A stretch of DNA of 64,000 bases, taken from NCBI GenBank assembly GCA_964449445.1, contig CAYUZT010000006.1, positions 12,223-76,222 on the forward strand. The letters run 5' to 3'. Under the pieces are notes generated by a model, which worked only from the letters and a program-made list of their open reading frames with translations, did no database searches and had not been told where the DNA came from. Each line of letters opens with the position of its first letter. The stretch's first letter is position 1. This DNA comes from an uncultured Candidatus Peribacteria bacterium (GTDB taxonomy: Bacteria; Patescibacteriota; Gracilibacteria; Peribacterales; Peribacteraceae). Shown piece after piece: positions 25,395 to 27,089 of this stretch. A program made the translations under genes and the position numbers.

Positions 25395-27089
25395 ATGCAG
25401 CAAACCTGCGCCCACTGCTCAACCCAGTTCACGATCGACCCGCTCGATCTGGACTTCTACGACCGCGTCTCGCCGACCTTCGCAGGAAAAAAATATGCGA
25501 TTCCCGCTCCGAAGCTTTGCTTCCACTGCCGATTGCAGCGGCGGATGTCCTTCTATAACTGCCGCTCGGTCTATAAGAGGACGTGTGATGCGACCAAGAA
25601 ACCCATCGTCTCGATTTTCTCGCCCGATAAACCCTTCACGGTGTACGACAAGAATGTCTGGTTTGGCGACAGTTGGGATCCCAAGAGTTTTGGAGTGGAT
25701 GTCGATTTCACCCGGCCGTTCCTCCCTCAGGTTCGTGAACTCGCTGTGCGCACTCCCATGCTCTGCATCATGCACTTTGGCGAGGAGAACCCCAACAGCG
25801 ATTACACCAACGATAACTACAAGATTAAGAACTGCTATCTGGTCTTTGACGGCGAGCAGGCCGAAGACTGCATGTACGGTCAAACCTACGTGATGAGCCG
25901 CAGCTGTGTGGACTTCTTATTCATTCATCGTTGCGAGCTCTGCTATGGCTGCTGCTACTGCGACGAGTCGTACAATCTGCGATACTGCCGCTTCTGCAAA
26001 AACTGTTCGGACAGCTGGTTTTTACGTGACTGCATCGGCTGCCGCAATTGCTTTGGATGCGCCAATCTCCGCCAGAAGCAATACTGCATTTGGAATCAGC
26101 AGAAAACGAAGCAAGAGTACGACGAGTTCATGAACGTCTTCCGCTCCGACTCCCATGCAGCTGTGCTCGCAATGCGTCAAAAAGCGGAGGAATTCTTCAA
26201 AAATCAGCCTGTTCGCGCAACGCGCGGTGAGCAGAATCAGAACAGCTTCGGTGATAACTTGAACAATTCGAAGAACGCCTACTACTGCTTCGATTGTTTC
26301 GCGCAGGAAGACTGCCGCTACTGCACCAATTGCCTGATGTCGGCCAAAGACACGATGGATATGCACGTGTGGGGTGACGGCTTGGAAGTGTCGTATGACT
26401 GTTGCGTGACCGGAGCGAACAGTCGCAATCTGCTCTTCTGCTACAACGTGAGCCAAGGCTGCAGCGACATCCTCTATTCCCTCTATTGCAGCCAATCCTC
26501 CAAAAACCTCTTCGGATGTGTCGGGCTGCGTCATGCGCAGTATTGCATCCTGAACAAGCAGTACTCGAAGGAAGAGTATGAGCAACTTGCCGCGCGTGTT
26601 GTCGAGCACATGATCAAGAACGGCGAATGGGGCGAATTTTTCGCATCTAAATATGCACTCTTCGGCTATAACGAAACCGTTGCGCAAACATATTTCCCGC
26701 TCACAAAGGAAGAAGCCCACAAGCGCGGCTGGCAGTGGTGTGATTACGAAGCAGCCGTGGAAGCAAAACGCTCGATTCCCGCCCAAAAGCTTCCGGACAG
26801 CACCGCAGATATTCCCGATGACGTCCTCGACTGGGCCCTCGTATGCGAACTGACAGGGAAACCCTTCAAACTCACCAAGCAGGAACTGGAATTCTATCGA
26901 ACGCACAAGCTGCCGCTTCCCCGCCTGCATCCAAACGAACGCCATCGGCAACGGACATTGCTCCGTAATCCCTTTCGGCTATGGGCAAGAATGTGCGGCG
27001 TGTGCGGAAAGGAAATACAAACGTCGTATGCTCCGGAGAGGCCCGAGAGAGTCTTGTGTGAAGCGTGTTACTTGAAGGAAGTGTATTAA
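25395..27089 (+). CDS. Cys-rich double-zinc-ribbon repeat protein, paralog 1 (uncharacterised family)
   Basis: ORF 25362 trimmed to ATG 25395 (MQQTCAHCSTQF), 6 nt after TATACT; C-term CGVCGKEIQTSYAPERPERVLCEACYLKEVY. Confidence 0.9.
   Translation: MQQTCAHCSTQFTIDPLDLDFYDRVSPTFAGKKYAIPAPKLCFHCRLQRRMSFYNCRSVYKRTCDATKKPIVSIFSPDKPFTVYDKNVWFGDSWDPKSFGVDVDFTRPFLPQVRELAVRTPMLCIMHFGEENPNSDYTNDNYKIKNCYLVFDGEQAEDCMYGQTYVMSRSCVDFLFIHRCELCYGCCYCDESYNLRYCRFCKNCSDSWFLRDCIGCRNCFGCANLRQKQYCIWNQQKTKQEYDEFMNVFRSDSHAAVLAMRQKAEEFFKNQPVRATRGEQNQNSFGDNLNNSKNAYYCFDCFAQEDCRYCTNCLMSAKDTMDMHVWGDGLEVSYDCCVTGANSRNLLFCYNVSQGCSDILYSLYCSQSSKNLFGCVGLRHAQYCILNKQYSKEEYEQLAARVVEHMIKNGEWGEFFASKYALFGYNETVAQTYFPLTKEEAHKRGWQWCDYEAAVEAKRSIPAQKLPDSTADIPDDVLDWALVCELTGKPFKLTKQELEFYRTHKLPLPRLHPNERHRQRTLLRNPFRLWARMCGVCGKEIQTSYAPERPERVLCEACYLKEVY

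Follow-up and report, generated by a model that had tools for sequence, protein, structure and literature searches.

The question raised by this locus is whether the cysteine ladders encoded in one of its genes ligate metal, form disulfides or pack the core of a repetitive fold. The stretch analysed (the window) comprises 64,000 nucleotides of contig CAYUZT010000006.1 from an uncultured Candidatus Peribacteria bacterium, and the gene in question, paralog 1 at 25395..27089, is the first of 12 related genes on its + strand. A sequence-only reading had described two internal Cys-repeat blocks in the product, each closed by the motif LRxKxYCIxNxQxxKxEY and mirrored in all copies, and had proposed an internal duplication, C-x2-C clusters recurring about every 15 residues, and either a beta-solenoid or a multi-metal protein. 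The blocks are real and highly non-random, and their Cys are mainly core residues. Each block is probably a narrow beta-solenoid of about 8-9 turns, with Cys that mostly pack the core and are not obligate metal ligands.

Paralog 1 encodes 564 aa from ATG 25395, the start also used by database copy P0001 (564 aa, 100% identical), and residues are counted here from that ATG. The program-made open reading frame (ORF) of 575 aa, beginning at GTG 25362, contains 41 Cys (7.1%). A perfect 13-nt tandem repeat, GTGAGGGCTATGA, is present in 2.5 copies at 25336-25368, directly upstream of the paralog 1 start and overlapping the upstream GTG. The N-terminus, MQQTCAHCSTQF, carries no signal peptide or hydrophobic leader and opens directly with a zinc ribbon. 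The domain order is ribbon module, repeat unit 1, repeat unit 2, alpha/beta region and ribbon module, and each repeat unit is built of a lead-in helix, a Cys block, the cap and a further helix. Features of the gene, with the basis for each where given, are the following (AF2, AlphaFold2).

25395..27089, + strand: paralog 1 gene, 564 aa from ATG 25395
25404..25661, + strand: N-terminal zinc-ribbon module (residues 4-89), a homologue of the C-terminal one; hhalign and all-or-none Cys covariation (phi 0.87-1.0)
25725..26141, + strand: repeat unit 1 (residues 111-249), with lead-in helix, block A solenoid, cap strand and cap helix; hhalign self-match
25794..26102, + strand: predicted block A solenoid proper (residues 134-236), about 8-9 coils of 12 residues; period-3 Cys lattice and AF2 bridges
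25941..25970, + strand: first C-x2-C-x2-C-x2-C rung (C183, C186, C189, position 192); family Cys counts
26031..26060, + strand: last rung, C213-x-G-C216-x-N-C219-x-G-C222; best conserved Cys cluster of the blocks
26067..26141, + strand: block A cap, L225-R-x-K228-x-Y230-C231-I-x-N234-x-Q-x-x-K-x-E-Y242, then helix; conservation and AF2 helix 239-248
26178..26600, + strand: repeat unit 2 (residues 262-402), with lead-in helix, block B' solenoid and cap; hhalign self-match
26235..26561, + strand: predicted block B' solenoid proper (residues 281-389), about 9 coils of 12-13 residues; super-period 13 and AF2 strands
26526..26600, + strand: block B' cap, L378-R-x-K-x-Y383-C384-I-L-N387-K-Q-Y390-S-K-E-E-Y395, then helix; conservation and AF2 helix 392-408
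26841..27071, + strand: C-terminal zinc-ribbon module (residues 483-559), CxxC-x17-CxxC at 534-558; profile matches and hhalign

The region singled out earlier, 25800-26600, encodes residues 136-402 and so spans both blocks, and the block-end peptides quoted for it occur in the translation of ORF 25362/25395-27089 as RDCIGCRNCFGCANLRQKQYCIWNQQKTKQEYDEF and KNLFGCVGLRHAQYCILNKQYSKEEYEQL. The Cys listed at relative positions 1,4,7,8,10 / 19,22,25 / 34,37,40,43 are C180, 183, 186, 187, 189 / 198, 201, 204 / 213, 216, 219, 222. In paralog 1 position 192 of the first rung is Ser, and C187 lies off the lattice described below.

The 12 window paralogs were aligned with 75 database homologues (alignment A2, 87 sequences) and the resulting profile was compared with itself by hhalign. 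Residues 111-249 align with residues 262-402 (E = 1.4e-23, probability 99.6%), in agreement with the proposed duplication, and the two ribbon modules, residues 4-89 and 483-559, likewise align with each other (E = 7.5e-17). A search for a DNA-level tandem repeat inside the paralog 1 gene returned none, and the block duplication is therefore old; the two blocks are products of an ancient internal tandem duplication. Both blocks and both caps are present in 12/12 window paralogs, as had been claimed of all copies.

The cap, with the motif G-C-x-G-L-R-x-K-x-Y-C-I-L-N-K-Q-Y-S-K-E-E-Y, is the most conserved part of the protein. Across the family, conservation in the block A cap is 99% for N234, 91% for L225 and 87% for K228, and in the block B' cap 100% for N387, 99% for Y390 and 97% for C384. 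The block A cap (residues 231/236; 26085-26102 in paralog 1) has two linked forms, Y-C-I-x-N-x-Q in 102 sequences and Y-[HY]-x-x-N-K-P in 80, which mark subfamilies and are both found among the 12 window paralogs. In the ribbon modules (25404-25661 and 26841-27071; all paralogs), the N- and C-terminal copies each retain a different one of two ancestral Zn sites, and the sites that were lost (C67/C85/C88; C487/C515 with C512) are seen again, all-or-none, in about 17-23% of the family.

The repeat itself was characterised in 272 non-identical full-length members drawn from 78 genome loci and the database set. Among these members 97.4% of block A Cys fall in a single residue phase with period 3. 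The same holds in raw, ungapped form for each of the 12 window paralogs, where 79-100% of the 13-19 block A Cys share one phase (P 2e-4 to 8e-9). Family-wide Cys-Cys autocorrelation in block A is 2.4-4.1x at every multiple of 3 up to lag 36 and 0.03-0.11x at lags that are not multiples of 3, with no special peak at lag 15. The residue-profile autocorrelation of block A peaks at lags 12, 24 and 36 (r = 0.52, 0.44, 0.44) over a background of about 0.3-0.37 at all multiples of 3, lag 15 being at 0.36 and lag 18 lacking a peak; in block B' the peaks are at lags 13, 26 and 39 (0.37, 0.30, 0.27). Both super-periods persist when Cys are removed from the profile, the lag-12 peak of block A then standing at 0.45. 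Written in rows of 12, block A gives eight rows with the consensus K-[ND]-C-[YF]-L-s-x-d-(C/L/F)-x-x-(C/S), and block B' in rows of 12-13 gives the same picture. Block A holds on average 14.1 +/- 2.3 Cys per 100 residues (range 6-19); Cys are fewer and more variable in block B', where C365, C375 and C384 are near-invariant.

The period of about 15 residues is thus rejected by autocorrelation, and in its place stands a lattice of 3 with a super-period of 12 (block A) or 13 (block B'). The earlier value is the mean of 18-residue and 12-15-residue gaps between Cys clusters in one paralog. A period of 18 residues, that of the left-handed beta-helix, was rejected as well, by the missing lag-18 autocorrelation peak and by anticorrelated Cys presence at lag 18. 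The notion that the blocks are a composition artefact, a Cys-rich low-complexity region lacking a defined repeat, has nothing beyond the high Cys content in its favour and is refuted by the per-paralog phase test (P down to 8e-9), by a 12/13-residue period that non-Cys residues carry too, by the 3,422 representative clusters that carry the block (the top 150 all with two copies) and by AF2 pTM values (predicted template modelling scores) of 0.81-0.89.

Residue composition differs by phase. Lattice positions (phase 0) hold C 45%, S 15%, L 11%, G 5%, V 4% and I 4%; the phase preceding the lattice residue (phase 2) is occupied by turn formers (D 19%, N 17%, Y 11%, G 9%); and the phase following it is rich in Y, F, E, R and K. 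Where a ladder Cys is missing it is substituted by S (46%), L (15%), V (11%), I (8%) or A (6%); His, Asp and Glu play no appreciable part. In the zinc ribbons of these proteins, T, S, E, H, Q and D stand in for Cys. Given this composition and these replacements, the ladder positions carry a buried-core signature.

Covariation within block A adds a second line of evidence. The presence of Cys is positively correlated at separations of 12 and 24 (195-207, 198-210, 201-213, 189-213) and negatively at separations of 6 and 18 (204-210, 207-213, 189-195, 192-198, 195-213). Compensatory swaps are seen between S207+C213 (168 sequences) and C207+L213 (30), between L210+C204 (169) and C210+S204 (17), and between L195+C189 (107) and C195+S189 (26), with Fisher P of 1e-9 to 1e-15, uncorrected for phylogeny. 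Cys numbers in coils e and f are under-dispersed: exactly two Cys are present in 62% of cases for coil e (expected 48%) and in 76% for coil f (expected 57%). This combination of lag-12 and lag-6 covariation with under-dispersed coils is the pattern predicted by a 12-residue coil, in which residue i+12 would stack on residue i while residue i+6 would oppose it across a lumen fitting one small and one larger side chain. Conservation also differs around the coil: positions 1-6 (K-N-C-Y-L-s) form a conserved face (1.2-2.1 bits entropy), and positions 7, 8, 10 and 11, outward on the opposite face, are the most variable of the domain (2.7-3.4 bits).

Structure prediction had been suggested as a check for solenoid geometry. 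The AF2 full-length model (87-sequence alignment) reached a pLDDT (predicted local distance difference test) of 88.4 and a pTM of 0.89, and the model of the central domain (residues 101-409, 137 sequences) a pLDDT of 87.4 and a pTM of 0.81. Both are predicted to be beta-rich, with block A bridges every 6 residues (lattice columns 1 and 3 in the central-domain model) and one strand every 12-13 residues in block B', where pLDDT is 89-99. In block A it is 58-75 for coils a-e and 91-97 for coils f-h. Foldseek comparison of both models with the Protein Data Bank (PDB) gave no match at E <= 1e-3; the weak matches (E 0.007-0.4, best 0.0067; TM <= 0.18) are left-handed beta-helix proteins, namely GlmU, LpxA/D, gamma-carbonic anhydrase and CcmM. 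They are read here as reflecting a local solenoid-like geometry, as modelled, that lacks a global counterpart, and their 18-residue coil is contradicted by the autocorrelation and covariation.

Taken together with the periodicity, these data support the solenoid half of the earlier alternative, a solenoid-type repeat being indicated by periodicity, lag-12/lag-6 covariation, AF2 secondary structure and the beta-helix matches of Foldseek. In the proposed arrangement one turn would take 12 residues in block A and 13 in block B', and every third residue would face the lumen, giving four inward positions per turn. With every third residue pointing inward, the C-x2-C-x2-C ladders would be consecutive inward-facing positions. 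The lumen would be too tight for large side chains and filled mostly by Cys, Ser and Leu, the Asp or Asn before most inward residues would act as turn former, and the aromatic residue after the first inward residue of each turn would build a ladder on the outside. Each solenoid would be closed by a strand-plus-helix cap, and the Cys lattice would provide a compact core for the shortest possible coil.

Several points weigh against this picture. AF2 confidence is only 58-75 in precisely the Cys-richest coils of block A, and a domain in need of a cofactor could look so. The coil geometry was derived from DSSP strings and sequence statistics, not from atomic coordinates. None of the Foldseek matches is significant globally, the best being 18-residue-per-turn left-handed helices, and the beetle antifreeze fold, which has 12-residue coils, is absent from the top 50. 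Mean-field direct coupling analysis of i/i+12 contacts (272 sequences, about 260 effective) was noise-dominated and uninformative, and was discarded. The last rung, 213-222, is too conserved for covariation to decide on metal. Finally, 45% Cys at the core exceeds the needs of packing, for which Ser, Ala, Thr or Val would do, so that a thiol-specific role (metal, redox or cross-link) is likely in part.

The alternative that survives best is a multi-metal protein whose lumen thiols coordinate Zn or Fe, at rungs 183-192 and 213-222 and at CxxC pairs one turn apart (189/192 with 201/204). The result would be a chain of M(Cys)4 centres holding the solenoid together, or a device for metal storage or sensing. 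Besides the drop in AF2 confidence, it can draw on the strong preference for Cys over other small core residues (45%; 14.1 +/- 2.3 per 100-residue block), on a last rung that is 83-98% Cys and largely persists in a Cys-poor variant, on the conservation of two Cys per turn while their positions swap, on an anaerobic host lineage and on a protein that carries no signal peptide. Four inward Cys per 12-residue turn, moreover, cannot all pair as crossing disulfides and could ring one ion.

The terminal zinc-ribbon modules, present in the same alignment, show how genuine metal tetrads behave and so provide an internal control. The distribution at ribbon sites 64/67/85/88 and 484/487/512/515 is bimodal, a member having either 0-1 or all 4 Cys and never 3/4 (pairwise phi 0.67-1.0), whereas all plausible block tetrads (183/186/189/192, 189/192/201/204, 201/204/213/216, 213/216/219/222 and 365/369/372/375) follow the expectation for independence, with exactly three Cys in 23-33% of members. 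The first rung, 183/186/189/192, has all four Cys in 36% of members and three in 32%, a near-independent variation. The hydrophobic or small replacements described above, hardly ever His, Asp or Glu, also speak against a metal chain, as do the span of 6-19 Cys per block and block B', which with fewer Cys is modelled at pLDDT 89-99 in the absence of metal. Structural Zn(Cys)4 sites within the blocks were accordingly not supported, as neither co-conserved ligands nor Cys/His interchange was found, rung 213-222 being too invariant to judge on this basis.

A Cys-poor relative provides a further comparison. The short, divergent protein L067:11681-13174 (genetic code 25) keeps the fold-defining 12-residue repeat and builds its ladder with Ser, Val, Asn and Ile, retaining as Cys two early positions, three of the last rung (216, 219, 222) and the cap Cys. 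It lies in an array, L067:8170-21304 (code 25, TGA = Gly), where full-length members alternate with short variants of about 490 aa that match positions ~69-516 only of the hidden Markov model (HMM) and lack the Zn-ribbon ends; L067:11681-13174 is the one short variant translated, and its ladder is nearly Cys-free. The array suggests a paired full/short arrangement.

Discrete multi-metal sites are disfavoured by the independent tetrads, the core-type replacements and the Cys-poor relative, and a multi-metal protein is for these reasons judged rather unlikely; a metal role extending over the whole ladder is doubtful to about the same degree. The last rung is a separate matter. C213, C216, C219 and C222 are Cys in 83, 95, 98 and 89% of the family, and three of them persist in the Cys-poor variant. 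This rung beside the cap, with C365, C375 and C384 in block B', is the only serious candidate for a structural metal site or cross-link, a tentative assignment to which we give slightly less than an even chance. The earlier statement that Fe-S, Zn and disulfide could not be told apart from sequence holds as a statement, and what remains of its scope is this near-invariant rung only.

More speculative, and improbable at present, is a lumen that forms a continuous thiolate stack holding a linear file of metal ions, or a thiol/redox wire, inside a cytoplasmic beta-solenoid of 12 residues per turn, encoded in CPR genomes by arrays of a dozen paralogs each and bearing a hypervariable face for target recognition. 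If true, this would be a new metalloprotein architecture with a backbone convergent with that of beetle antifreeze protein.

A ferredoxin-like Fe-S protein, in which CxxCxxC runs would ligate [4Fe-4S] or [2Fe-2S] clusters and the blocks would act as an electron-transfer wire, is very unlikely. In its favour, CxxCxxC occurs in 267/272 members, the host is an anaerobe, and one of the 87 aligned members has an isolated Pfam Fer4_7 match (E = 5e-6). The motif CxxCxxCxxxCP is found in 0/272 and CxxCxxCxxxC in 16/272, no Fer4 or radical-SAM Pfam match was obtained with the window proteins or the 137 central domains, the Cys of the runs vary independently, and their spacing is strictly x2, as the coil lattice dictates. 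Of the earlier remark that the spacing resembles the ferredoxin motif but does not equal it, the non-identity was borne out and ferredoxin-like sites were not.

No more credible, and ranked marginally lower, is a solenoid braced exactly as in beetle antifreeze proteins, with cross-lumen disulfides between Cys six apart in each turn. The 12-residue coil logic is held in common, including an N-C dipeptide at the second Cys (PMC8038014), and in the CxxCxxCxxC rungs both lag-6 pairs are Cys-Cys. These two rungs are, however, the only places where lag-6 pairs are so occupied; where positions vary, the presence of Cys is anticorrelated over six residues, with Leu or Ser as the usual partner, and most turns place their Cys in adjacent columns (lag 3) and not opposite each other. 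The protein presumably resides in the reducing cytoplasm, given that it has no signal peptide. As the Cys count is even in only 47% of the 272 members, an obligate all-disulfide pairing is not indicated.

The solenoid proposed here can be set beside known systems. Beetle antifreeze proteins (Tenebrio molitor TmAFP, PDB 1EZG; Dendroides DAFP) are right-handed beta-helices with 12- or 13-residue coils of the type TCTxSxNCxxAx; small residues (C, S, C, A) face inward at every third position, the lumen is almost devoid of a hydrophobic core, and the Dendroides relatives have occasional extra residues in some repeats (PMC8038014). The CPR (Candidate Phyla Radiation) blocks share the coil of 12 residues, 13 in some, the small residues at every third, lumen position (in the blocks at the level of sequence only), Asn directly before the inward Cys and, as predicted for them, a lumen nearly free of hydrophobic core in which residues six apart oppose each other. 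They differ in that no sequence or Foldseek similarity was detected, and antifreeze proteins are not among the PDB profile matches at E <= 10. The CPR protein is presumably cytoplasmic, lacking a secretion signal; its outward ladder is K-[ND]-C-[YF]-L and not the T-C-T of the ice-binding T-x-T ladder; its lag-6 Cys partner is mostly Leu or Ser, which makes a regular pattern of one disulfide per turn (Cys2-Cys8) unlikely; and it is a bacterial protein, with 12 paralogs, in which a duplicated solenoid pair lies within 564 aa between zinc-ribbon modules. The CPR blocks are not members of the beetle antifreeze family and are probably alike in backbone architecture.

Left-handed beta-helices (LpxA/LpxD, GlmU, gamma-carbonic anhydrase, CcmM) are the sole structures retrieved by Foldseek for both models, and share a local geometry of short strand and tight turn with Asn/Asp or Gly at the turns. 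They differ in the quality of the superposition (E >= 0.0067, TM <= 0.18, root mean square deviation 8-22 A) and in their known coil of 18 residues (3 x 6), for which the blocks show no lag-18 peak; Pfam Hexapep (PF00132; hexapeptide [LIV]-[GAED]-x2-[STAV]-x) had no match in the 87 full-length or 137 central-domain members. Zinc-ribbon and treble-clef families with CxxC-x17-CxxC (PF23477 zf_Tbcl_2, PF13451, TIGR04272) have Cys-rich CxxC knuckles like those at both ends of the CPR protein. Their matches are confined to residues 533-561 and, for the window protein, fall short of the curated cut-offs, whereas the blocks have no match and their Cys are not tetrad-like. The 4Fe-4S ferredoxin motif and the CXXC-type zinc finger (TET3/CFP1) are similar in their C-x2-C-x2-C runs; the former is absent from 272/272 members and the latter's profile match (TET3 CXXC domain 4hp1, E = 0.058) is not significant.

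In broader searches, Pfam and NCBIfam gave no match for the blocks with paralogs 1 and 2, the 87 full-length members or the 137 central domains, yielding only sub-threshold zinc-ribbon matches at the C-terminus and a spurious Med15_N. PDB sequence-profile searches with the full-length and central-domain profiles gave none that was significant; apart from 4hp1, the matches were LIM domains to the C-terminal ribbon (E ~0.007-0.04) and CsoS2 (E = 2). A literature search for beta-helices with cysteine ladders, and for zinc ribbons in connection with CPR, found nothing relevant. The Peribacteria genome paper (PMC4736985) describes other Cys-rich proteins, extracellular and of 580-3,860 aa, that are distinct from the double-solenoid family.

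The block profile matches 3,422 of 1.84 billion representative proteins (50% identity clusters) at E <= 1e-3 and 1,050 at E <= 1e-30, and the top 150 of the 3,422 all contain at least two block matches. Full-length relatives form more than 7,000 clusters at 90% identity, all labelled "hypothetical". As a stand-alone protein (77-245 aa) the block gave 48 matches, all of them fragments or truncated genes of the same family, and no other architecture was seen. The 574 relatives located in genome contigs belong almost all to Peribacteria, Peregrinibacteria, Gracilibacteria, Abawacabacteria or unclassified Patescibacteria and frequently occur in arrays, with up to 9 per 21 kb. The family is not limited strictly to CPR, as one full-length member, L036:9956-11641, stands alone among ordinary metabolic genes on a contig of 3.26 Mb that bears the label Bdellovibrionota. 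Further records carry the labels Oligoflexia, Proteobacteria and Micrarchaeota, which could reflect transfer or mis-binning. This double-solenoid family, which has no Pfam, NCBIfam, PDB or literature description, is new, very large and mostly of CPR.

In the window, 11 further paralogs, each with both blocks, follow on the + strand at 28022..51836. The 12 copies share the hallmarks of the family (two block-profile copies, about 560 aa and YCILNKQY(S/T)KEEY caps) in 12/12 cases, with pairwise identity of 34-50% and Cys content of 6.1-7.9%. Their genes and segments, and the genes around them, are listed below.

28022-29722, 32165-33820, 35803-37482, 37479-39149, 39152-40828, 40828-42495, + strand: other 11 paralog genes, first six
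42500-44164, 44218-45873, 45878-47566, 48223-49902, 50169-51836, + strand: other 11 paralog genes, last five
28415-28768, 32495-32848, 36160-36519, 37839-38189, 39509-39862, 41185-41538, + strand: block A segments, first six
42830-43189, 44548-44901, 46235-46591, 48580-48933, 50508-50864, + strand: block A segments, last five
28865-29212, 32951-33301, 36613-36966, 38289-38633, 39965-40312, 41632-41979, + strand: block B' segments, first six
43289-43642, 45001-45351, 46691-47044, 49030-49380, 50964-51320, + strand: block B' segments, last five
27149-27916, 29772-30530, 34773-35528, - strand: three TrmB-family regulators (PF01978), interleaved with the paralogs
30609-32147, + strand: sodium:solute symporter (PF00474), directly upstream of paralog 3
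52103-54346, + strand: VirD4/TraG/TrwB-like P-loop ATPase, 747 aa (PF02534 7e-10, PF10412, DUF87)
55760-56596, + strand: YdjC-like protein (PF04794, 6e-65), downstream of the array

A TrmB-type regulator of about 250 aa is the commonest neighbour of the family, found at 33/78 loci. The VirD4/TraG-like ATPase at 52103-54346 has no obvious membrane anchor, and a homologue adjoins paralog arrays in 23/78 related loci.

In the predicted solenoid, the conserved coil face (positions 1-6) is likely to be packed onto the remainder of the protein, and the hypervariable face suggests that the 12 paralogs present a range of binding surfaces built on one rigid scaffold. Such a scaffold with a diversified recognition face is inferred from the variable positions (7, 8, 10, 11) together with the presence of 12 diverged paralogs in one genome. 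Genomes of only about 1.3 Mb, in which each gene comes at a cost, hold arrays of up to 12 copies.

If the geometry holds, these proteins would be a bacterial, intracellular counterpart of the tightest known beta-helix, with 12 residues per turn and a lumen of Cys, Ser and Leu, a fold previously documented for beetle antifreeze proteins. They would offer a natural test case of how narrow solenoids are stabilised other than by disulfides, and the contrast between all-or-none ribbon tetrads and independently varying ladder Cys is a reusable sequence test for telling metal ligands from core Cys. A scaffold with one conserved and one hypervariable face would also help in probing what this family, among the largest orphan families of the CPR, does.

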